A stretch of DNA of 64,000 nucleotides from Candidatus Woesebacteria bacterium (GTDB taxonomy: Bacteria; Patescibacteriota; Microgenomatia; UBA1400; UBA1396): contig JAJOJK010000005.1 in the NCBI GenBank assembly GCA_021208605.1, positions 10,214 to 74,213 of the forward strand. Direction: 5' to 3'. Position 1 is the stretch's first letter; the number at the start of each line of letters is the position of its first letter. Positions 8,448 through 43,163 of this stretch are shown one piece after another. The position numbers and the translations under genes were made by a program. The notes beneath the pieces are model-generated. The model did not search any database. It saw nothing but the letters and a program-made list of their open reading frames with translations, and was not told the origin of the DNA.

Positions 8448-9296
8448 ATGAGCGCAGAGACACCTCACTCCAAAACTCCCGTTATGGGCACCGGTCTTTC
8501 CGGCCTGGTTGGCAGTCGAATTGTCGACCTTCTGGGCGATCGCTACTCTTTCCAGAATTTGGATCGGACAGAAGGCATCGATATCCTCAATCAAGAACAA
8601 ATTGAAAACATTGTGGCCAACTCAGCCGCCAAAACCATGCTGCACTTGGCGGCCTTTACCGACCTCAACACCGCTCAAAAAGAAGCCGGTGATACATCAG
8701 GAATTGTCTATCAAGTCAACGTGGAAGGCACGCGCACCATCGCTGCCGCCTGCGCTCGCCATGGTGTGCACTTGATCCACCTGTCCACCGGATATGTGTT
8801 TGATGGCGAAAAAAACGAGCCGTACACCGAAACCGACCCCACCAATCCGGTCGACTGGTACTCCGAGACAAAGCTGAAAGCCGAGGAAGTTGTCACCGAA
8901 CTCACCTCAGAAGCCACTATTCTGCGCATCAATTTCCCCTACCGCCAAGACGAGTTTCCCAAAGCTGACATCTGGCACAAAATGGCCAACGCCTTGCGCG
9001 AGGGCAAAACTGGTCCTTTCTTTGACGACCATTTTTTCACGCTGACACCCATTGAGTGGTTTGCTGATATCGTCGACTGGGCAATCACCGCCAAACCAGC
9101 CGGTATTTTCCACGCTACCACCGACACGGTTTACACCGACCTGTCTCTGGCCACGGAAATTCGTGACTCGCTTGGACTTACCCAAGAACTCACCGGGAGC
9201 AGTGTCCACACGTATAACCAAACCGCCGAGCGACCATACGCACCTTCTCTCATACTCTCAAATGAAAAACTGAAAGCCGCACTCAAGACCTCCTAA
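8448..9296 (+). CDS. rmlD: dTDP-4-dehydrorhamnose reductase
   Basis: 282 aa reading MLHLAAFTDLNTAQKE...IHLSTGYVFDGEKNEPYTETDPTNPVDWYSETKLKAE, an RmlD substrate-binding fold. Start is 3 nt after the rmlC stop. Confidence 0.8.
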   Translation: MSAETPHSKTPVMGTGLSGLVGSRIVDLLGDRYSFQNLDRTEGIDILNQEQIENIVANSAAKTMLHLAAFTDLNTAQKEAGDTSGIVYQVNVEGTRTIAAACARHGVHLIHLSTGYVFDGEKNEPYTETDPTNPVDWYSETKLKAEEVVTELTSEATILRINFPYRQDEFPKADIWHKMANALREGKTGPFFDDHFFTLTPIEWFADIVDWAITAKPAGIFHATTDTVYTDLSLATEIRDSLGLTQELTGSSVHTYNQTAERPYAPSLILSNEKLKAALKTS

Positions 9297-29662: not shown

Positions 29663-30370
29663 ATGTCTACTGACCACATTACGCTCACGCTGCCAAACCA
29701 AGAAACCCTCGTTCTTCCGTGGAAAAAGCTCAAACGAGCGAAACATATCCGCGTCACGGTTTCGCAAGGCAAGCCGCGCGTTTCCTCACCGCCTTCCGTT
29801 TCCCGCCACTCGGTGGAGAGTTTCTTGCTGCAGCAGTCAGCTTGGATTCAGAGTCAGCTCAATAAGATAGAGTCTCTTCCCCAAAATACCCTGTACTACC
29901 GCGGCGAACCGCACCAACTTATTTTTCATTCTGATATTCCGAAAGATCGCCGCATCTATCGCGACGTCACTAACATTGTTGTCCATCCCATTGTGATGAG
30001 TACCAACTCGATTACCTCTTCGTTGGAGCGCTGGCTCCAGACCGAAGCCAGCACGGTCTGCGTGCCTATTCTGCAAAAGCATGCTGTCAACATGGACGTG
30101 GAAGTCCCGCAGCTTCGCTTCCGTGACACCCGCTCGCGCTGGGGAAGTTGTTCAAGCACCGGCGCTATTACGCTGAATTGGCGCCTGGTTCATGCGCCTA
30201 TCGAGGTCACTGAGTACGTTATCGTTCACGAATTGGCGCACCGTATCCACATGAATCACTCAAAAGATTTTTGGGACTTGGTGGAGGAACACAACCCGAG
30301 TTACCGCATTCACCGCGGCTGGCTGAAGCGCCATGGACATCTCTGCCGGACGCCGGAAATTATCTTGTAA
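29663..30370 (+). CDS. YgjP-like metal-dependent hydrolase (DUF45/M48-like, WLM/SprT-type HExxH)
   Basis: ...RFRDTRSRWGSCSSTGAITLNWRLVHAPIEVTEYVIVHELAHRIHMNHSKDFW, the DUF45 signature. Confidence 0.75.
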   Translation: MSTDHITLTLPNQETLVLPWKKLKRAKHIRVTVSQGKPRVSSPPSVSRHSVESFLLQQSAWIQSQLNKIESLPQNTLYYRGEPHQLIFHSDIPKDRRIYRDVTNIVVHPIVMSTNSITSSLERWLQTEASTVCVPILQKHAVNMDVEVPQLRFRDTRSRWGSCSSTGAITLNWRLVHAPIEVTEYVIVHELAHRIHMNHSKDFWDLVEEHNPSYRIHRGWLKRHGHLCRTPEIIL

Positions 30371-30377
30371 ATATGGG

Positions 30378-30448
30378 AGGGTCCAACCCTTCTGCATTCC
30401 AGTTTTACTCATCTGGAAACTCTGAGATGCACAAAAGGGTTGGACCCT
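30378..30448. repeat. 71-nt multi-stem hairpin (outer 14-bp perfect stem AGGGTCCAACCCTT/AAGGGTTGGACCCT with nested GCAT/ATGC and CCAG/CTGG stems) between convergent ygjP and rnj
   Basis: Arms at 30378-30391 and 30435-30448. Followed by a T-rich run on the plus strand. Confidence 0.6.
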
Positions 30449-30457
30449 AGTTTTCGT

Positions 30458-32118
30458 TTATGAAACGCTGGAAATAACCACCATCACTAAAGGGTTCAAT
30501 CCGAACTTGTCATTTAACAAGCGCACAATGCTCTTTTCCACATCGCGACGAAGGTCTTGGCTGGACGAATCACTCGTCTCGACCAGTTCTTCGACTGTCT
30601 GGCGAATGCGATCACGCAACTCGTCTTGTGGCACGTCTTCGCCCAAGGCGACACCGCGCATGTCGATAGCAATGTTGTCTGGATCAACCGTGCCAGCTGA
30701 CTCGAGCACCGACACCACCTATGGCGCCGTTTTTTGACCGAGCGTCTCGCGCTCGCTCAAGTGCTTGCTGATTACATCGGCCACGCCAGTGCTGTCCACA
30801 GAGCGCTCGCGGAGCTTGATTTGCTCGTCACTGTAGCGCATCTTGCCGCCTGCAAACTCAACCCACTTGCCGTCCATCGGTAGCACAACTTGTTGTGGAC
30901 GGTATCCGTGCTCACGAACCTTCAAGCCGAACAAGACGCGATGGCGATCCTCACCACCGATCGGGAAACGTATTCTGGTTGCAACAAGTGCAACAGAATC
31001 ATCTGCTCGTACTCGCTGGCGTGACCAGACACGTGCAAACCAGGATTCATCTCGGCGTAGGCCACTTCGATACCTTGGCTGGCAATGCGGTTAATGGTGC
31101 GGTAGACGTCTTTTTCGCTCCCTGGAATTGCGTCGGACGAGAAAATAATCTTATCGCCTTTGCTGACGCTAATCATGCGGTGAGAACCAAAGACCGCGCG
31201 CACCAGCGAAGACCCTGGCTGACCCTGACTCCCAGCAATTATGACACAAAGTTCACTATCTGGAATATCGTCCATGCGGCGTTTATTCACCTTCATGTCC
31301 TGCGGAATATCGAGCAGGCCCATGTTCATAGCTGTGTTGACGTTTTGTTCCACGGAACGACCAATAAAGGCCACTTTACGACCATACTCAGCGGCCACGT
31401 CGACAGCCTGTTGAATACGGTGAATGCTGGAGCTCATCAAGGTCACCAAGACTTTGCCTTCTACGTCGCGCATTTCTTCGCGGATGGCAGCGCCGACACT
31501 CGACTCAGAAGCCGCTGGCAGCGGTCGCTCGATACGCAGACAGTCAATTGCCGCACACAGAACGCCTTCGCGACCAATCTCGGCCACACGTTGGAGATCA
31601 CTCGGAATGCCATCGACTGGCGTCAAATCAAGCTTAAAGTCAGAACCGTGGTAAAAGACTCCATCAGGAGTGCGAATGACTAGGTGGCGTGTATCGGGAA
31701 TCGAGTGCGTAATCCGAATGTTCTCAACTTGGAATGGTCCAAATTCTAGAACTCCATCATCTTCAAAGTACTGCACCTCTTTTTCAACACCATTATCGGC
31801 CATACGAGTCATGGCGAACTCGGCGGTGAGTGGTGAACCAAAAATCGGCACATCAACATCAATTTCGCGCAGCACGTATGGCAGCGCCGCAATGTGGTCA
31901 TCGTGACCATGCGACAGAACAATCGCGTGCAAAGTCGCGCCTTGAGCGAGTCGGTCTTGGAGGTATTGAGAGTCTGGAATCAGGAACTCAACGCCTGGCA
32001 TGGTCTCGTCTGGGAAACCAATTCCACAGTCGACCACGAGCATGTCGTCATTGTGTTCATAGACGAATAAGTTTTTGGTGACTCCAGAAATTCCTCCCAA
32101 TGGGAAAATTTTAGTCAT
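30458..32118 (-). pseudogene. rnj: Ribonuclease J (metallo-beta-lactamase/beta-CASP), disrupted by a -1 frameshift near 30935-30945 and an in-frame TAG at 30719-30721
   Basis: N-terminal fragment: VLSHGHDDHIAALPY (HxHxDH)...HVSGHASEYEQ.... The middle fragment in another frame reads FPIGGEDRH...EHGYRPQQVV. The C-terminal fragment in the same frame follows the TAG: VVSVLESAG...FGLNPLVMVV. A T3 to T4 correction restores PEYVFPIGGEDRH. Confidence 0.8.
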
Positions 32119-32194
32119 GTGAAACCCCTTTCTTACGGAGTTTTTTATTGTTGTATTTCAAGATCTGATAGGAACATTATACAGGAAAAACATT

Positions 32195-32217
32195 CGGGAG
32201 ACACCCCTAGGCCTATA
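32195..32217. repeat. Left arm of a 23-nt perfect inverted repeat flanking the UDG gene (CGGGAGACACCCCTAGGCCTATA)
   Basis: Exact reverse complement of 32907-32929. Imperfect similarity extends about 10 nt on both sides. Confidence 0.85.
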
Positions 32218-32221
32218 AAAA

Positions 32222-32854
32222 TTAAAGCAAAGCCGACCGCACCTCCGCCACATGAGCATCATGTTCTTCTTGCTCCCGAATATACGCTAACGCTTTAGGA
32301 ATTTTTCCGATATCGCGCTCAAAAGACTCTTTCATATTGCCGTTTCTCAGCGCTGCCGCCGGGTGATATACCGGCAACAAATACGTTATCTTACCTTCCC
32401 ACATAAATCGCTGCAGCACTCCATGAATGGCCGAAATTTTGGCATCCGGCAAAAAGAAATTCATAGAAAATCGCCCAAGGCTCACAAAAAGCAAAGGCTC
32501 AATAATGTCGATTTCACGGTATAAATACGGCACAAAAGCATTGATTTCTTCTGGCTTTGGATCGCGATTATCGGGCGGACGCACCTTCACAATATTCGAC
32601 ACGTAAAAGTCGTCTCGCTTCATGCCATGCATCTCGAGCGTCGCGTTCAGCAATTTTCCACCGCGACCAACAAACGGCTTGCGTTCGATTGCCTCGTTTC
32701 TGCCAGGAGCTTCACCGATAAACATCACGTCGGAGTCCACATTGCCAAAGCCCATGACCATGTCCTCTGGCTTTTCCGCTAAAGGTAGAGATTCGTAATT
32801 TGACTCGAGTTCTTGAAGGAGTTGTTGTCTTTTTTGCGTTTTGGATTCAGACAT
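32222..32854 (-). CDS. Uracil-DNA glycosylase, family 4
   Basis: FIGEAPGRNEAIERKPFVGRGGKLL...FYVSNIVKVRPPDNRDP, the family-4 UDG GEAPG motif. Confidence 0.8.
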   Translation of the reverse strand: MSESKTQKRQQLLQELESNYESLPLAEKPEDMVMGFGNVDSDVMFIGEAPGRNEAIERKPFVGRGGKLLNATLEMHGMKRDDFYVSNIVKVRPPDNRDPKPEEINAFVPYLYREIDIIEPLLFVSLGRFSMNFFLPDAKISAIHGVLQRFMWEGKITYLLPVYHPAAALRNGNMKESFERDIGKIPKALAYIREQEEHDAHVAEVRSALL

Positions 32855-32906
32855 AAAACCATTGTAACAAATCGCCTCGATAAATCTGCATGAGGCTCTT
32901 AAATAC

Positions 32907-32929
32907 TATAGGCCTAGGGGTGTCTCCCG
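32907..32929. repeat. Right arm of a 23-nt perfect inverted repeat flanking the UDG gene (TATAGGCCTAGGGGTGTCTCCCG)
   Basis: Exact reverse complement of 32195-32217. Confidence 0.85.
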
Positions 32930-32938
32930 ATTCCTTTT

Positions 32939-34048
32939 TTAATAACTCGGCAAGAAATACCGCACATTCTCTTCAGTAATCACCACTTTATCAAGCCCTT
33001 GCTCCAGCATCAGCCGCGCCGATTTTGCCACCACACCCTTCAGAGTACGCTCCAAAGTACGGATACCGGAGTCAAAACCGAGCGGACGAACCATGTTCAT
33101 CCAAACGTCGTCGGAGAAAACAATAGTGTCTTTGTTCATGCCGGCCTCAGCCAGCATTTTCGGCATCACGTAGCGGCGAGCAATGTGGATTTTTTCTTCG
33201 TCGGTGTAGGACGGCATCGTCAAGTGCTCCATACGGTCGTAGACCGCAGTGGCAATGTGGCGCGTGTTATTCGCCGTAGCAATAAACAGCACTTCCGACA
33301 AATCAACGGGAAAATCCAGGTAGTGATCCGTAAACGAGTGGTTCTGGTTCGGATCTAAAAGCTCAACCAAAACACCCATAATGTCCATACGCGCGTCTTC
33401 GGAAACACGGTCGATTTCATCGAGCAGCATCACCGGATTACGCGTTTTGGCTTGCGTCAAACCTTTGATCACCAAACCAGGCTCTGCCTCCAAGTGCAAA
33501 CGCGACTGGCCACGCAAGTCACGCGCCGAACCCATACCACCAAACGGCACACGGATTATTTCGCGACCCAGAGCCTCAGCAATAGAATAGGCAAACGTGG
33601 TTTTACCTGTACCCACCAAGCCAACCAATAGCAAAATGGGCGCACGGACAGAATCAGCTTTCCCCGCCGCCACGCTCTGTTTCTGAAACTGCAAAATAGC
33701 CATGTACTCCAGAATGCGGTCTTTGATCTCCTGCATGCCGTAGTGATGCTCTTCAAACACCTTTTTGGCCCGCTCTAGGTCTAAAACATCTTCACTCTTC
33801 TCCTGCCAAGGAACCGCTAAGGCCCATTCAATATACTTGGCAGTACGCTCGTACTCTTCAGCGTACGAACTACTGTGCGCCGCCCGACGCAAGTGCTTGA
33901 GCATACGCTCAATCTTGAAACGCAGTTCTTCAGGCAGCACTTTTTCACTGATGCGACTCGCTAAATCATCAAGCTCTTGCTGAACTAAGGGATCAATACT
34001 GGGATCAGCCACGGTCGTGGCCTGAATCTGGGCAGACTCTTCTTGCAT
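32939..34048 (-). CDS. Lon-like AAA+ ATPase lacking the N-terminal substrate domain and the C-terminal protease domain
   Basis: Aligns by eye to the Lon region from the coiled-coil through the AAA+ alpha-subdomain: Walker A LLLVGLVGTGKTT, Walker B VMLLDEIDRV, sensor YDRMEHL. Ends at VRYFLPSY, where the Lon protease domain would begin. Only 10 nt separate it from the UDG inverted repeat. Confidence 0.7.
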   Translation of the reverse strand: MQEESAQIQATTVADPSIDPLVQQELDDLASRISEKVLPEELRFKIERMLKHLRRAAHSSSYAEEYERTAKYIEWALAVPWQEKSEDVLDLERAKKVFEEHHYGMQEIKDRILEYMAILQFQKQSVAAGKADSVRAPILLLVGLVGTGKTTFAYSIAEALGREIIRVPFGGMGSARDLRGQSRLHLEAEPGLVIKGLTQAKTRNPVMLLDEIDRVSEDARMDIMGVLVELLDPNQNHSFTDHYLDFPVDLSEVLFIATANNTRHIATAVYDRMEHLTMPSYTDEEKIHIARRYVMPKMLAEAGMNKDTIVFSDDVWMNMVRPLGFDSGIRTLERTLKGVVAKSARLMLEQGLDKVVITEENVRYFLPSY

Positions 34049-34123: not shown

Positions 34124-34912
34124 TCATCTTATATTTTTGATATCTCGGTACAAATCATCAACCAAACCGGGTGGCCCATCGTCTCGACCAATAAACTCAT
34201 TGACACCAATTCCATTTAATTCAGCCACTACTGCCTGCGGATTGCTGTTCACTCGACCTTCAAGCGCTATTGTGGAAATACTGAGCTTTTTAGACAATTC
34301 TTTAAGATATTTCTCATTCAGTATTGCCTGAGTAATATCTCCACCCCGCACAAGATCAAGAATATATACCTCATACGTACCATCTCGATGCACAAGAAGA
34401 TCAAACTGATCATCCCAAGGCAGGAGAACACCACTTTCTGTTGCTTTGCGAGCAATATCTTCAGCCTGCAGACGAATATCGTTCTTATGCTTTTCGTATA
34501 CCCTCAAAAAGATATCATCCAATTCACTCAACTCAACATCATGCCGACGAATGCTTTCCTGGAATATTTTTCCAAATTTTGCCTTGCCATAAAAATCACT
34601 CCCATCTTGGGTGAGATCAGTTACATAGACTTTTTCAATTTCACCATTTTTTTCTCTTTCGATGACCCGTAGAGTTGGTGGAACGGGTAAACCAGCCTCA
34701 CGAAATAACTTCCAATTTTTTGCAAAGTCTTCCGCGGACTCTTCTCGGGCTAACATGGTAAATTCATGTCTACCAATTCTGATACGAACTCGTTCTTTCG
34801 TAGTATCTGCAGCACCAATATGAGTCCCTAGCCTTTCTGTATCTACTTGTGTAACTTCCCGAGTTGTTGCTCCGGATCCTGGTTTCAAGTGAATTTGATT
34901 ATTCTCCGCCAT
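34124..34912 (-). CDS. Hypothetical protein with an HRD...ILDL kinase-like catalytic-loop motif (atypical kinase/phosphotransferase-like, speculative)
   Basis: 262 aa reading ...FDLLVHRDGTYEVYILDLVRGGD.... No glycine-rich loop recognised. Lower GC than the neighbours. Confidence 0.35.
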   Translation of the reverse strand: MAENNQIHLKPGSGATTREVTQVDTERLGTHIGAADTTKERVRIRIGRHEFTMLAREESAEDFAKNWKLFREAGLPVPPTLRVIEREKNGEIEKVYVTDLTQDGSDFYGKAKFGKIFQESIRRHDVELSELDDIFLRVYEKHKNDIRLQAEDIARKATESGVLLPWDDQFDLLVHRDGTYEVYILDLVRGGDITQAILNEKYLKELSKKLSISTIALEGRVNSNPQAVVAELNGIGVNEFIGRDDGPPGLVDDLYRDIKNIR

Positions 34913-34986: not shown

Positions 34987-37227
34987 TTAGCTATCGCGAC
35001 GTGGGCCACGGCCGCGGCTGCCGCCACGACGATCACCACCACGATCTCGGCCACCACCTCGGCGGTCATTTCGACCACCGCGGTCGCGTCCGCCGCCTCG
35101 GTTTCCACCGCGGCTGCGACGCTCGCCACCTTCACCGTCATTGTCGGACTCTTTGCTCCACTCTTCAGGAGAAACCATCGACAAACGAATGCGATCACCT
35201 TCGAGTTGCTTCACCCAAACGTGAACGGTCTCATTGAGCTCAACCACATTGCGTGGATCATCGACAAAACCAGTGCCCATTTCAGAAACGTGAACGAGAC
35301 CAGTCTTTCCTGGAACGAGGTCGACGAAAGCACCGTAGTCTTCAATACGGGCGACCGTACCATCGAACTCCATACCTTCAGACAGTTCCAAAGTGAGGTC
35401 TTTAATAAACTTCACGGCTTTAGTGATATTTGCACGATCGATACCAGCAATGCTGACCATGCCGCTGTCGTCGATATTGACTTCAACTTCCAGGTCCTCT
35501 TGAATTTGCTTGATCACCTTACCACCAGGACCAATGACCGTACCGATTTTATCGACTGGAATCTGGACAGACTCAATCTTCGGCGCGTTCTCAGCCACAT
35601 CAGCGCGTGGTTCAGAGATGGCTTCCATCATGACATCCATGATGTGCATACGAGCCACTTTGGCCTGAGCCAAGGCAGTGCGCAGAATTTCGAGCGTAAT
35701 ACCAGAGATCTTGATGTCCATCTGCAGAGCAGTAATGCCATCGCGAGTTCCGGCCACCTTGAAGTCCATGTCACCGACGTGGTCTTCGAGACCTTGGATG
35801 TCAGTCAGGACAACAGTCTTGTCACCTTCCTTCATGAGACCCATGGCGATACCAGAAACTGGCTTGCGGATTGGCACACCAGCATCCATAAGGGCCAAAG
35901 TGCTTCCACAGACAGAAGCCTGAGAAGTAGAACCATTTGAGCTCATCACTTCAGAGACCACATGAATAGTGTATGGGAACTCTTCCTGAGTTGGGAGCAC
36001 TGGCAAGAGGGCGCGCTCGGCCAAAGCACCGTGACCAATTTCACGACGCTTCGGAGAACCGATGCGACCAGTTTCACCAGAAGCAAATGGAGGCATGTTG
36101 TAGTGGTGAATGTAGCGACGCTCCTCTTCACCTTCCATGTCTTCAATCAGCTGGGCCAAAGCCGGAGAGCCGAGTGTGGCCACCGACAGTACTTGGGTAG
36201 CACCACGTTTGAAGAGACCAGAACCGTGCACCATTGGCAACACACCAACTTCGGAAGTGATCTGACGCACTTCTTCCGTGGTACGACCATCTGGACGCTC
36301 ACCGTCTTCAATAATCATGCGACGGGCTTCTTTCTTCTGCAGTTTGCTGAAGATGTCCTCAAGCGGTGCATCGAGCAGGTCTTCACGCTCTTCACGCAGC
36401 TTGGCAATGATTTCAGAAATCACAGAAGATTTGCGTAAGTGAGCTTTTTCGACCACCGCCTCATGAATCTGATCGTGATAGGACTTGCTGAACTCTTTCA
36501 GTAAATCAGCATCAAGTTCAGGACTTTCGAAGGCAAATTTCTCTTTACCGACAGCATCTCGCAACTTGCTCAGTTCCGCAGAGATGTCAGCCAGAACCTG
36601 AGAACCAGCTTCAAACGCACGAACCATGGTTTCTTCGTCGACTTCGATAGCGCCGGCTTCGACCATCACAATCGCTTCTTTGGTACCAGCCAAAATTAAG
36701 TCCAGTACCGAAGAGGACTGCTCTTCATAAGTTGGGTTGAAAATGAAGCTGTCAGCGTCAGGATTGTAGCCAATACGGACACCAGAAACGGGACCAGCAA
36801 ACGGAATGGAAGAAATTTCCAATGCCGCCATCGAGGCAATCATCGCCAACGTGTCAGGATTGTTCTCGTGATCGACTGACAAAACAGAAGCCACGACCTG
36901 CACTTCACGGCGCATGCCATCGGGGAACAACGGACGGATCGAGCGATCAATCACGCGAGCAGACAAGATCGCATCATCAGAGGGGCGACCAGGTCGCTTT
37001 ACCCAGCGGCTGCCTTTAATGCGACCACCAGCGTAGAGGTTTTCCTGATACTCCACAGTCAGTGGGAAAAAGTCGAGACCGGATTCGCGGCCGACCGCTA
37101 CCGTGGCGTGCACCACCGTAGAACCACACTGCGCCAAAACGGCAGCATCAGCTTGTTCGGAAAATCTTCCGACAGTGAGTTGGATATCTTTATTGCCAAC
37201 TCGGATAGTTTGGGTATGAATACTCAT
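34987..37227 (-). CDS. pnp: Polyribonucleotide nucleotidyltransferase (PNPase) with an Arg/Gly-rich C-terminal extension
   Basis: RNase PH domains, KH and S1 domains are present. The C-terminal tail reads GGERRSRGGNRGGGRDRGGRNDRRGGGRDRGGDRRGGSRGRGPRRDS. Start at ATG 37227 with RBS GAAAGGAGAG. Confidence 0.9.
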   Translation of the reverse strand: MSIHTQTIRVGNKDIQLTVGRFSEQADAAVLAQCGSTVVHATVAVGRESGLDFFPLTVEYQENLYAGGRIKGSRWVKRPGRPSDDAILSARVIDRSIRPLFPDGMRREVQVVASVLSVDHENNPDTLAMIASMAALEISSIPFAGPVSGVRIGYNPDADSFIFNPTYEEQSSSVLDLILAGTKEAIVMVEAGAIEVDEETMVRAFEAGSQVLADISAELSKLRDAVGKEKFAFESPELDADLLKEFSKSYHDQIHEAVVEKAHLRKSSVISEIIAKLREEREDLLDAPLEDIFSKLQKKEARRMIIEDGERPDGRTTEEVRQITSEVGVLPMVHGSGLFKRGATQVLSVATLGSPALAQLIEDMEGEEERRYIHHYNMPPFASGETGRIGSPKRREIGHGALAERALLPVLPTQEEFPYTIHVVSEVMSSNGSTSQASVCGSTLALMDAGVPIRKPVSGIAMGLMKEGDKTVVLTDIQGLEDHVGDMDFKVAGTRDGITALQMDIKISGITLEILRTALAQAKVARMHIMDVMMEAISEPRADVAENAPKIESVQIPVDKIGTVIGPGGKVIKQIQEDLEVEVNIDDSGMVSIAGIDRANITKAVKFIKDLTLELSEGMEFDGTVARIEDYGAFVDLVPGKTGLVHVSEMGTGFVDDPRNVVELNETVHVWVKQLEGDRIRLSMVSPEEWSKESDNDGEGGERRSRGGNRGGGRDRGGRNDRRGGGRDRGGDRRGGSRGRGPRRDS

Positions 37228-37389
37228 ACTCTCCTTTCTTTGAGGAGAGGGAGATAGAGAAGTTTTCGCATCTACCGGGAAAATGATTGTTTTGTCCTGC
37301 CACAAAACGCTTACCCGGCACAGGTGAAAACACCAACTCTCTCCCGCACCTCTATGTTTTTCTTTACTTGTTCAGGGAGGTGTTTCGAA

Positions 37390-37838: not shown

Positions 37839-37912
37839 GCCAGGGTAGCTCAGTTGGTTAGAGCATCGGATTCATAAACCGAAGGTCGTGGGTTCAACTC
37901 CCACCCCTGGTA
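37839..37912 (+). tRNA. tRNA with anticodon CAU (Met, or Ile2 if lysidinylated)
   Basis: GCCAGGG-TA-GCTCAGTTGGTTAGAGC-A-TCGGA-TTCATAA-ACCGA-AGGTC-GTGGG-TTCAACT-CCCAC-CCCTGGT-A. D-arm identical to Bacillus tRNA-Ile(CAU). G1-U72 wobble, A31-A39 mismatch, no encoded CCA. A TATAAT box lies about 25 nt upstream. Confidence 0.85.
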
Positions 37913-37928
37913 CTTTCCATTTACCATT

Positions 37929-38012
37929 TAGGTTTCTCCTGTGTTTCAATTTCCTCAAGAAGGAGAAACCTAGGATGCTCCTTCTTGAGGAAATTCTGCA
38001 ACAGGAGAAACC
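37929..38012. repeat. Cluster of mutually exclusive perfect inverted repeats (11-nt AGGTTTCTCCT/AGGAGAAACCT and 14-nt TCCTCAAGAAGGAG/CTCCTTCTTGAGGA, plus a third copy CAGGAGAAACC)
   Basis: Read directly between the tRNA (+) and hup (-). Segments 37929-37939, 37950-37963, 37961-37971, 37977-37990 and 38001-38011. Confidence 0.6.
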
Positions 38013-40720: not shown

Positions 40721-43163
40721 ATGGCTATCAGCATTCGACACTCATCGGTAAAAAACTCCGCTCCCGCAGAGTCCAACGAGAAAACACCTGCCAAGCAAGA
40801 TCACCCGGCTTTACTGCCGCTGATTGCCTTGCGTGACGGCGTCATGTTCCCAAACACGGAAACGGTGCTCGTTTTTGGCCGCGAACAGTCACAACTTGCT
40901 CTGAATGCTGCCCAGGGATCACACAAGTACGTGGTCATCGTGGCGCAGAAAAAAGCTGCCACCGAAAACCCGACCCCCAAAGACCTCTACCAAATTGGTA
41001 CTCTCGCAAAAATTGAACGCACGCTGCAACACGAAGGTGAAACCCATGCTTTGATTCGTGGTATCCGCCGGGTTCGTGTTCAGTCATTCCAGCAAGAAAA
41101 ACCGTTTCCGGTGGTTATTGCTGAACAACTCGAAGAAAAACTCAAGCAGACGGATGAGTTCGAAGCTTCACTCAAGCACTTGTCGAATGTATTCCGCAAG
41201 ACGGTGCAATCCGGCAAAGCAGTCGAGTTCTTCAATTTTATGCAGTTGGTCGGGGGACTACAGTCGAAAGACTTGGTGGATCACATCGCTTCTGCTTTGG
41301 ATATTCCAACCCGTGACAAACAGCGCTTACTGGAACAGCTTGACGTCAACAAACGCGTAAAAGCGGTCATCGCCCACCTCACTCGCGAACAACACATTCT
41401 CAATATCGAACAAAAAATCAATAATGAAACCAAGAAGCAGATCGACGAGCGCATGCGAGAAAACGTCTTACGCGAACGCATGCAGGCTATCCAGCGCGAA
41501 CTCGGCGAACTCGACGAAGAAGAAGAGCTCGACGAACTCGAAGAGCGCATCAAAAAAGCGCGCATGCCAAAAAAGATTGAGGAAAAAGTCACCAAAGAAC
41601 TGCGTCGTTTACGCCAGATGTCGCCGATGCACTCGGAGTACTCCTATGTCATGAGCTGGCTAGAGTCGATGCTCGACATGCCCTGGAGCAAAAAATCACG
41701 GGGTCGTACTTCTCTCAAGCGCGCGGCGAAGGTGTTAGATCAGCAGCACTATGGTCTCGAAAAGGTGAAAGAACGCGTCTTAGAGCATTTGGCCGTCATG
41801 AAGCTGCGCGAACAAGATGGGAGCAAGTCTTCAAAAAAGAAAAATACCGACGACAAAACCCCACGTAAAAAATGTGCTGCCCACGATTCTCTGTTTTGTC
41901 GGTCCGCCTGGTGTGGGTAAAACATCAATTGGCCGTTCGATTGCTGAGTCGCTTGGTCGAGAGTTCGTGAAGGTGTCTTTGGGCGGCGTCCATGATGAGG
42001 CCGAAATCCGCGGACATCGTCGAACCTATGTCGGTGCTATGCCAGGAAAAATCATGCAAGGCATGGCGCAGGCTGGTACCAAAAACCCAGTTTTTATGCT
42101 CGATGAAGTCGACAAACTCGGCTCTGATTTTCGGGGTGATCCTTCCGCGGCTCTCCTAGAAGCCTTGGATCCAGAGCAGAACTTTGAGTTTACCGACCAC
42201 TATCTGGGCGAACCATTTGATCTCTCTGATGTGATGTTCATCACCACAGCTAACGTTTTGCACACGATTCCTGGTCCGCTCCGCGATCGTCTGGAAATTG
42301 TCGAATACACTGGATACACCTACGAAGAAAAATTCAACATTGCGCAGCAGTACCTGATTGATCAGGTTCGTGAAGGCGCCGGACTGAAGAAAACACAGTT
42401 TTCACTTACTGATGGCGCGCTCCGCGAAGTCATTGAACACTACACGCGTGAGGCTGGCGTTCGTGCTTTGAAGCGAGAGATTGCCAAAGTGGCGCGAAAA
42501 GTCGCGCGGCAAATCGCCGAAAAAGAAACAAAAAACGTCAAAGTCGAAAAACGCACCGTCAGCGACTACCTCGGTCCGATCAAAGTAATCGACACGCTCA
42601 TGGAGCTCGAAGACCAAATTGGTTTAGTGAACGGTTTAGCCTGGACGAGCACCGGCGGAGAAGTCATGCACATTGAGGCCGCACTCGCCACTGGCCAGGA
42701 AGGCTATACCATTACCGGTCAGCTCGGCGAAGTGATGAAAGAATCAGTCAAGGCGGCCTACACCTATGTTCGCTCGCACGCTGAGGAACTCGGGATTACG
42801 CCGCAAGCGTTCAAACATAACCACGTCCACATCCATGCTCCGGAAGGAGCTGTACCAAAAGATGGACCTTCGGCCGGTATTGCGTTGACGACTGTAATCA
42901 CGTCAGTTTTTGCCGAGAAAAAGATCAAACACACGGTGGCGATGACAGGCGAGGTGACGCTTCGCGGCAGAGTGTTACCCATTGGTGGATTAAAAGAAAA
43001 ACTCATTGCGGCACACCGAGCCGGCGTAAAACAGGCCTTTATTCCTAAACAGAATGAGAAAGACCTTGTCGACGTCCCAGAAAAGGTGAAAAAAGATATC
43101 ACCATTATCCCGGTGGAACACGTTAGCGAAGTCCTTGATCAGGCGCTTATCTGGAAAAAATAA
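40721..43163 (+). pseudogene. lon: ATP-dependent protease Lon (LonA), split by a +1 frameshift within 41817-41920 (poly-A runs)
   Basis: The Lon N-domain and coiled coil are in ORF 40721-41920. ORF 41817-43163 carries LPTILCFVGPPGVGKTS (Walker A), the AAA+ domain, and the protease domain with the PKDGPSAGIA Ser and K. The frames overlap across A6 tracts, and deleting one A restores a continuous ORF. Confidence 0.85.

Follow-up and report, generated by a model that had tools for sequence, protein, structure and literature searches.

Perfect inverted repeats around a native uracil-DNA glycosylase gene in a Woesebacteria genus and their probable relation to a RAYT-type transposase

A uracil-DNA glycosylase (UDG) gene of Candidatus Woesebacteria (Patescibacteria) is enclosed by the two arms of a long perfect inverted repeat, and the locus raises the question of how a DNA-repair gene came to stand in what looks like a cassette. 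The gene lies in a 64-kb stretch of contig JAJOJK010000005.1, hereafter the window, to which all positions refer unless they carry one of the labels L001 to L101, given to the related loci and assemblies that were fetched. UDG (32222-32854, minus strand; 210 amino acids) is a family-4 enzyme (Pfam PF03167, E 2.4e-29). Its neighbours are those given in the earlier note on this DNA, a Lon-like AAA+ protein without protease domain on one side and RNase J (rnj) on the other. The probable explanation, held with moderate confidence, is that the arms are lineage-specific end-repeats, similar to repetitive extragenic palindromes (REPs), of an element of the REP-associated tyrosine transposase (RAYT; Y1 HUH) type belonging to the Lon-like/UDG spacer in this Woesebacteria genus.

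The earlier note had described a 23-nt sequence, CGGGAGACACCCCTAGGCCTATA (32195-32217), as the exact reverse complement of 32907-32929. This was confirmed in the sequence, and the perfect match is one base longer than first noted, comprising the 24 nt TCGGGAGACACCCCTAGGCCTATA at 32194-32217 and 32907-32930. In gene orientation (minus strand), the upstream arm (32907-32930) reads TCGGGAGACACCCCTAGGCCTATA and begins 8 nt past the Lon-like stop codon, and the downstream arm (32194-32217) reads TATAGGCCTAGGGGTGTCTCCCGA and is located 4 nt past the UDG stop codon, just upstream of the rnj -10 element. The similar but imperfect flanks and the overlapping CCTAGG and AGGCCT palindromes of the arm core, both reported earlier, are also present; pairing extends to 40 nt at 85% complementarity (32899-32938 on the upstream side with 32186-32225 on the downstream side, 673 nt between them), the flank similarity beyond the perfect 24 nt being weak and A/T-rich. 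The statement that the arms bracket the UDG reading frame and nothing else holds for the enclosure of UDG, but the UDG -10 element (32861-32869) and a small hairpin (32874-32896) lie inside as well.

Such a repeat is not expected by chance, as the earlier note had maintained: rough arithmetic gives about 1e-6 perfect 24-nt inverted repeats within 4 kb in a sequence of 64 kb, and dinucleotide-preserving shuffles gave arm matches in 0 of 100 cases. Only two arm copies occur in the window with up to 3 mismatches allowed, and the conserved arm 8-mer GGCCTATA is found in the window only at the arms and has few occurrences in 814 kb of related loci. Exact search with the 19-mer core of the arm returned no match in IMG/VR and none in 185,579 species genomes, a collection from which the window species is apparently missing (best Lon-like match 96%), so that its own genome falls outside this copy scan. 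Comparison of whole spacers across species with blastn-short matched only short arm cores.

Whether UDG arrived together with the arms can be judged from its relatives. A scan of the same 185,579 genomes with the Lon-like protein yielded 80 loci, which with the other fetched loci make 87 distinct loci, and the order Lon-like, UDG, rnj in the same orientation is found in 57 of these 87 related Patescibacteria loci. The close relatives L003, L005 and L007 carry UDG at the same site without the window's arms, and among the relatives no UDG-less empty site supporting an insertion was seen at the Lon-like/rnj junction. Amino-acid identities to the window for Lon-like, UDG and RNase J are 96, 93 and 97% in L007 and 90, 85 and 92% in L003. 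UDG homologues, which carry the source name 'uracil-DNA glycosylase family 4', occur in graded similarity across Patescibacteria. Between the window and L003 the synonymous divergence is 0.61 for UDG and 0.58 for its neighbours. Four-fold-site divergence between the window and L007 is 0.67 for UDG and 0.52-0.53 for the neighbours; because this excess recurs between L007 and L003 and is absent between the window and L003, the UDG of L007, not that of the window, is the outlier, and a foreign history of the window UDG was rejected.

The synteny thus marks UDG as a native gene of this site rather than as cargo. The MITE-like reading of the earlier note (MITE, miniature inverted-repeat transposable element) retains one part, since the arms belong to a transposon-related repeat family that flanks a Y1 transposase in L094; its other part, capture or insertion of UDG, is refuted by the synteny and by the arm-less UDG of L003, L005 and L007. 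MITEs and mobile insertion cassettes, such as MIC231 of Bacillus cereus, are non-autonomous elements bounded by terminal inverted repeats, some with passenger genes. The window resembles them in having terminal inverted repeats around a single complete transcription unit without a transposase, and a repeat-bounded mini-gene cassette at a neighbouring position in L006 is the most similar case. A true mobile cassette that was inserted here with UDG as cargo is nevertheless extremely improbable: UDG occupies this exact position in the 57 loci with or without arms, the 19-mer is unmatched in the collections described above, the divergence of UDG from L003 is like that of its neighbours, and there are no other copies and no UDG-less empty site. 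Nor is there a target-site duplication; its absence, already remarked, was confirmed, as no direct repeat lies immediately outside the arms (AAGGAA versus ATGTTT).

The arms themselves have relatives in two sister species. In L006 (UDG 76%, Lon-like 90% identity), AGCTGACAGCTTTGGGCCTATA starts 1 base after the Lon-like stop codon, with an inverted partner (21/22 match) 271 nt downstream, and a solo unit, TATAGGCCCAAGGGACCGTCCC, follows rnj (L006:3620-3641), giving three arm-family copies in the 4.9-kb L006 contig. In L094 (UDG 80%, Lon-like C-terminus 91% identity), GCTGAAGTAGTATACCTTAGGCCTATA starts 7 nt after the Lon-like stop codon, and its partner arm (25/27), 486 nt downstream, abuts the UDG start codon. 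These two L094 arms (332-358 and 845-871; ...CCTTAGGCCTATA) are 27 nt long and 93% complementary, and flank a 145-aa gene on the opposite strand (372-809, minus). The first arm therefore has the same orientation in the window, L094 and L006 and starts 8, 7 and 1 nt, respectively, after the Lon-like stop codon. The window upstream arm matches the left arms of L094 and L006 at 16 of 20 nt, of which TAGGCCTATAG is identical (shuffle test, p <= 0.0005), and most pairs of arms from the three genomes reach p <= 0.0005 in such tests.

A common architecture can be recognised, consisting of TATAGGCC, 3 nt (YAR) and a small palindrome of variable sequence. The window arm is TATAGGCC-TAG-GGGTGTCTCCC; the two inverted copies of L006 are TATAGGCC-TAA-AGCTGTCAGCT and its solo unit is TATAGGCC-CAA-GGGACCGTCCC; the L094 arms are TATAGGCC-TAA-GGTATACTAC... 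and TACAGGCC-TAA-GGTATAATAC.... Arms match far better within a genome (window 24/24, L006 21/22, L094 25/27) than between species. With 52-67% of four-fold degenerate sites different between the window species and its nearest relatives, intergenic DNA free of constraint is expected to have been randomised, and neutral orthology cannot explain the common motif. These comparisons establish the arm after the Lon-like gene as homologous in position, orientation and sequence among the window, L006 and L094. No counterpart of the downstream arm was found in the UDG/rnj spacer of L003, L005, L006, L007 or L094; within the genus this spacer is conserved from the rnj -10 element to the rnj start codon and not in the upstream part that holds the arm. 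The upstream arm is probably the ancestral copy and the downstream arm probably a recent, lineage-specific inverted copy.

The spacer between the Lon-like gene and UDG is also a hot spot of gene turnover. It holds a Doc/Fic toxin in L007 (6111-6801), the transposase described next in L094, GT2-like glycosyltransferases in L008 and L009 (recognised from N-terminal motifs, not scanned) and reverse-strand open reading frames (ORFs) of unassigned function in L011 and L012. The L006 unit (L006:760-1074) comprises 315 bp with 22-nt inverted repeats (21/22) and a 45-aa mini-gene that has its own extended -10 element, a strong Shine-Dalgarno motif and a terminator hairpin; the 45-aa ORF has no Pfam or NCBIfam match.

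The protein encoded at L094:372-809 belongs to the Y1 HUH transposases (Pfam Y1_Tnp, PF01797; E 6.8e-11, 42.8 bits, cutoff 23). Its only NCBIfam match is the REP-associated tyrosine transposase (REP_Tyr_transpos; E 1.6e-7, 31 bits), below the 80-bit equivalog cutoff. Searched against PDB as a single sequence, it gave spurious matches only. A family profile was built from 26 homologues, mostly from Microgenomates-group Patescibacteria and usually from one to few contigs each; its best PDB match is E. coli TnpA_REP (4ER8, E 1.1e-6), with the IS200/IS605 TnpA 2XM3 behind it at E 1.7e-3, and it ranks TnpA_REP ahead of the ISDra2 and Sulfolobus IS200/IS605 transposases. The L094 family appears RAYT-like. 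A homologue with 46% identity in L097 (L097-L099) has clusters of palindromic units, GGGATTACCCTT / AAGGGTAATCC, on both sides, which resemble REP/BIME clusters.

Y1 transposases, as established from the chemistry of IS200/IS605 and RAYT elements, are not expected to leave target-site duplications, and the missing duplication was for this reason counted for a RAYT origin. Two REPs in inverted orientation always accompany the rayt gene, one on each side, and they co-evolve with the RAYT; orthologous rayt loci retain their place, with REPs beside them that diverge but remain inverted repeats, and new REPs arise preferentially near rayt (Nunvar 2010, PMC2817692). The pattern in L094, L006 and the window fits each of these points. 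L094 presents a single-copy Y1 HUH gene between two inverted repeats, the repeats co-vary among species while their inverted arrangement is kept at the orthologous locus, additional copies are found in adjacent spacers directly behind stop codons, no target-site duplication is seen, and the L094 family profile is closest to TnpA_REP. The systems compared include REPINs and BIMEs and the RAYTs of E. coli (yafM, TnpA_REP 4ER8), Pseudomonas and Stenotrophomonas. IS200/IS605 insertion sequences (ISs) and their non-autonomous derivatives, the palindrome-associated transposable elements, share with L094 the Y1_Tnp transposase of about 145 aa, the small element and the lack of target-site duplication. 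However, IS ends are subterminal hairpins rather than terminal inverted repeats, IS elements are multi-copy, and the L094 protein matched no NCBIfam IS200/IS605 model, its profile preferring TnpA_REP over ISDra2 TnpA.

The history that we infer from a RAYT-type origin would be as follows. The ancestor of the genus would have had the arrangement arm, rayt, arm in the Lon-like/UDG spacer. Either through action of the transposase on single-stranded DNA or through copy-paste, an inverted copy of the repeat would then have been placed in the next spacer downstream, behind UDG, and rayt with its proximal arm would afterwards have been lost from the Lon-like/UDG spacer in the window species. UDG and its promoter would thereby have come to stand between the ancestral arm and the new arm, which together form the perfect inverted repeat. 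Homology and position of the arms, the link to the transposase and the nativeness of UDG are the observed points of this history, to which the order of events and the mechanism of copying are added by reconstruction. Today the arms are probably inert, barring a cognate RAYT at some other place in the genome. RNA reading through from the Lon-like gene into UDG would, as a side effect, carry a duplex of 24-33 bp.

Several observations weigh against a RAYT-type origin. Single arms with their flanks do not form stable stem-loops: as DNA they fold at -1.6 to -4.1 kcal/mol with z ~0, and only the S3 arm of L007 reaches z -2; a 5+1+5 mini-palindrome is visible in most arm units and is too small for stability. 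The GT(A/G)G or CGTC head of REPs was not found in the window arm, where the conserved block is TATAGGCC; of the L094 arms, the left one has GTAG and the right one GTAT. With two copies in 64 kb, there is no sign in the window of the tens to hundreds that a high copy number would imply. No RAYT homologue was detected in the window by tblastn or by profile search of six-frame ORFs, and none recognisable as coming from the window species was among the database matches. The history requires two events, the seeding after UDG and the loss of rayt, neither directly documented. Compared with the known RAYT/REP systems, the paired arms also differ in standing 270-690 nt apart around whole genes, whereas the spacer of a REPIN is short, and in having a Patescibacterium as host. 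No paper linking RAYT/REP with Patescibacteria was found, in a literature search of limited coverage whose RAYT part was not directed at the phylum and whose phylum-directed part concerned inverted repeats and invertons.

A further difficulty is an inverted repeat in L007 that a RAYT origin leaves uncovered. Here, in the closest related species, a perfect 28-nt repeat, ACGTCCTTATAACAGAGGATCTGACCCT (L007:7441-7468 and 9260-9287), with arms 1.8 kb apart, encloses the rnj promoter and gene. Its sequence shows no relation to the window arms, membership in their family having been rejected (p ~0.9 for the similarity in the shuffle tests), and no further copy of it was present in any of the loci fetched. 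Perfect identity and sharp edges could also result from a template switch without any transposase. The window repeat would then be a neutral, young mutation without function, produced when 24 nt of the Lon-like/UDG spacer were copied in inverted orientation into the UDG/rnj spacer by replication-fork template switching or microhomology-mediated repair. The lack of target-site duplication, the lineage-specific downstream arm and the L007 repeat, which has no link to a transposase, agree with such an event. We consider it unlikely, as the pattern is not random: the long-range repeats are confined to one genus and one neighbourhood, and those of three genomes form one family with the same anchor site, one pair flanking a RAYT-like gene.

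The extent of this confinement was seen in a scan of about 85 related genomes for long-range inverted repeats (score >=19, arm distance above 250 nt), which found them in three, the window, L006 and L007, to which L094 was later added as a fourth. All four are within this genus and the same neighbourhood, and none occurs in the other 60 kb of the window. The clustering leaves room for a selected function, such as an RNA duplex or looping of single-stranded DNA, or for a local mutational mechanism. In particular, gene-bracketing inverted repeats might be a recurrent selected device of this genus and not debris, for each of the four genomes has one promoter-and-gene unit of an RNA-decay and repair cluster enclosed: rayt in L094, the mini-gene in L006, UDG in the window and rnj in L007. 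Such pairs could be maintained by a RAYT-type enzyme or another single-strand-specific activity. This idea is also regarded as improbable; if it held, housekeeping units could loop out as single-stranded DNA, to be excised, copied or exchanged between strains, or could be insulated as RNA by RNase III.

The position of the UDG promoter bears directly on any role of the repeat in RNA. A putative extended -10 element, TGTTACAAT (32861-32869, minus strand), stops 6 nt short of the ATG; a Shine-Dalgarno motif is lacking, and the same arrangement precedes UDG in L003, L005, L006 and L007. In a survey of 62 UDG loci (from L003-L086), 50 have a TAnnnT -10-like hexamer 5-9 nt upstream of a candidate start codon and only 9 have a Shine-Dalgarno-like motif; the corresponding counts in the rnj controls are 20/69 and 50/69. 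From these frequencies, the UDG mRNA is most likely leaderless throughout these Patescibacteria. From the end of the upstream arm it is 37 nt to the extended -10 element and 40 nt to its TACAAT hexamer. With the promoter thus downstream of the arm, UDG's own transcript, of which the start is predicted, should lack the upstream arm, and only read-through RNA from the Lon-like gene could hold both arms.

These positions leave the second reading of the earlier note, a duplex between the 5' and 3' untranslated regions (UTRs) of the UDG mRNA, valid at most for read-through RNA, in which the arms pair in silico, the upstream arm being outside the predicted UDG transcript. In a broader form, a functional long-range duplex, 24 bp perfect and about 33 bp with flanks, would form in RNA reading from the Lon-like gene into UDG and possibly into rnj, where, as a substrate of the RNase III type, it might serve to excise the UDG cistron, to insulate it or to protect its ends, and it could have been co-opted atop a transposon origin. 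The arms close the minimum-free-energy structure of a 781-nt RNA folded in silico (-257 kcal/mol, z -3.2). Both occupy 3'-UTR-like positions, 8 and 4 nt past stop codons, a single transcription unit of the cluster is surrounded by a long inverted repeat in each of three related genomes, and the cluster encodes RNase Y, PNPase and RNase J.

Non-Watson-Crick positions also speak for pairing in RNA: two in the window flanks and one in L006 are G.U when read on the coding strand. However, the transition mismatch of L094 is A.C on that strand, so that there is no consistent strand bias, the count being 3 G.U, of which the doubtful flanks supply 2, and 1 A.C. The pair around UDG is absent from L003, L005 and L007, different genes are enclosed in different species, and in L006 and L094 the partner arm precedes UDG instead of following it, with no compensatory change at orthologous sites; this lack of conservation at orthologous positions argues against an old, selected RNA structure. 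Perfect Watson-Crick identity and sharp boundaries point to copying of DNA over long selection for pairing. An Rfam scan of the window returned two tRNAs only and no family match at the inverted repeat. The stem would close around a whole gene, if the arms were co-transcribed, as do RNase III processing stalks of rRNA and paired 5' and 3' UTRs of mRNA, but it differs from them in the position of the upstream arm outside the predicted UDG transcript and in the lack of conservation. Taken together, a functional RNA duplex is judged rather unlikely, and the end-repeats of a RAYT-type element remain the preferred explanation.

The locus was also compared among assemblies of the source population, which bears on the idea that the arms are sites at which a site-specific invertase flips the UDG unit, giving phase variation of a DNA-repair gene. 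Proteins identical to this UDG are encoded by NCBI metagenome-assembled genomes of Candidatus Woesebacteria and by Logan assemblies, and in eight assemblies (window, L001, L002, L087-L089, L101) the locus is identical except for indels, with both arms in the same orientation. No orientation variant or other polymorphism was seen among the eight beyond these indels; the window differs from L001 and L002 by 25 and 5 gaps, respectively, and by 0 mismatches. Being nearly identical, the eight assemblies make the population uninformative on variation. A metagenome scan with RNase J added only 4 distant loci.

In length and spacing the window repeat fits an inverton, and it surrounds a promoter and a gene. 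The single orientation in eight assemblies, however, is joined by the co-orientation of UDG with its neighbours in every related locus. No recombinase was recognised among the long ORFs of the window (>=170 aa outside 22-42 kb) or among the genes called near the locus in sibling assemblies, and a search for invertases and transposases in the window met housekeeping domains only. Moreover, flipping a complete promoter-and-gene unit would not switch UDG off. An inverton is accordingly very unlikely.

If the arms are indeed end-repeats of a RAYT-type element, a domesticated-type Y1 transposase can, through its end-repeats, give a native housekeeping gene the look of a 'gene in a cassette', and this signature is not evidence of gene capture. 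With L094, a RAYT-like transposase accompanied by co-evolving repeats on both sides is documented for the Patescibacteria (Candidate Phyla Radiation). This Patescibacteria version of RAYT-associated inverted repeats would be unusual in host and geometry, as it has no classical REP hairpin, is low-copy and has arms hundreds of bases apart. Should an activity or function of the repeats be established, genome plasticity or post-transcriptional control could be approached through them in organisms for which axenic growth is so far not possible.

The genes around the repeat, from the Lon-like side, are as follows. The Lon-like ATPase (32939-34048, minus strand; Pfam AAA and Lon_lid, no protease domain) provides with its stop codon the conserved anchor point of the arm family. 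Beyond it lie a 262-aa protein with no assigned identity (34124-34912, minus) and PNPase (34987-37305, minus). The C-terminal tail of PNPase (34987-35130, minus) is rich in arginine and glycine (…GGERRSRGGNRGGGRDRGGRNDRRGGGRDRGG…), and repeated units of the same kind are found in L005. Between the upstream arm and the UDG promoter, the small hairpin at 32874-32896 (minus strand), GCCTC-13 nt-GAGGC followed by GATTTGTT, can be seen both in the sequence and in the minimum-free-energy structure. It may act as a weak terminator for the Lon-like gene, although the terminator scan did not call it.

On the other side, an extended -10 element of rnj, TGTATAAT (32176-32183, minus), can be read from the sequence. 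The rnj 5' UTR (32119-32160, minus; likewise in L003, L006, L007 and L094) contains C(T/C)CCGTAAGAAAGGGG(T/C)TT, which is kept in the genus despite near-saturated synonymous sites and may be an RNase J leader, an autoregulatory element or merely an extended ribosome-binding site. RNase J (30458-32118, minus) is split in the window into three ORFs by single-base indels (30719-30721, about 30930-30965 and elsewhere) that L002 and L101 lack, and the splits look like long-read homopolymer errors, not pseudogenes. YgjP (29663-30370) is convergent with these minus-strand genes. Between rnj and YgjP stands a perfect 14-bp stem, AGGGTCCAACCCTT, with a 43-nt loop (30378-30391 and 30435-30448), which is unique in the window. 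Its arms (AGGG...CCCTT) resemble the REP-like units beside the L097 transposase (AGGGATTACCCTT), and repeats of them sought in the window were not found.

Two further observations concern the region beyond PNPase. The full-length Lon protease gene (40721-43163, plus strand) appears split into overlapping ORFs (40721-41920 and 41817-43163) and is fragmented also in L001, which reflects either a frameshift error or a real disruption. An 82-nt near-palindrome (37931-38012), made of two 41-nt arms with 83% complementarity and no spacer, directly follows tRNA-Met (37839-37913) and precedes the HU gene, and may be a bidirectional terminator or a processing hairpin.

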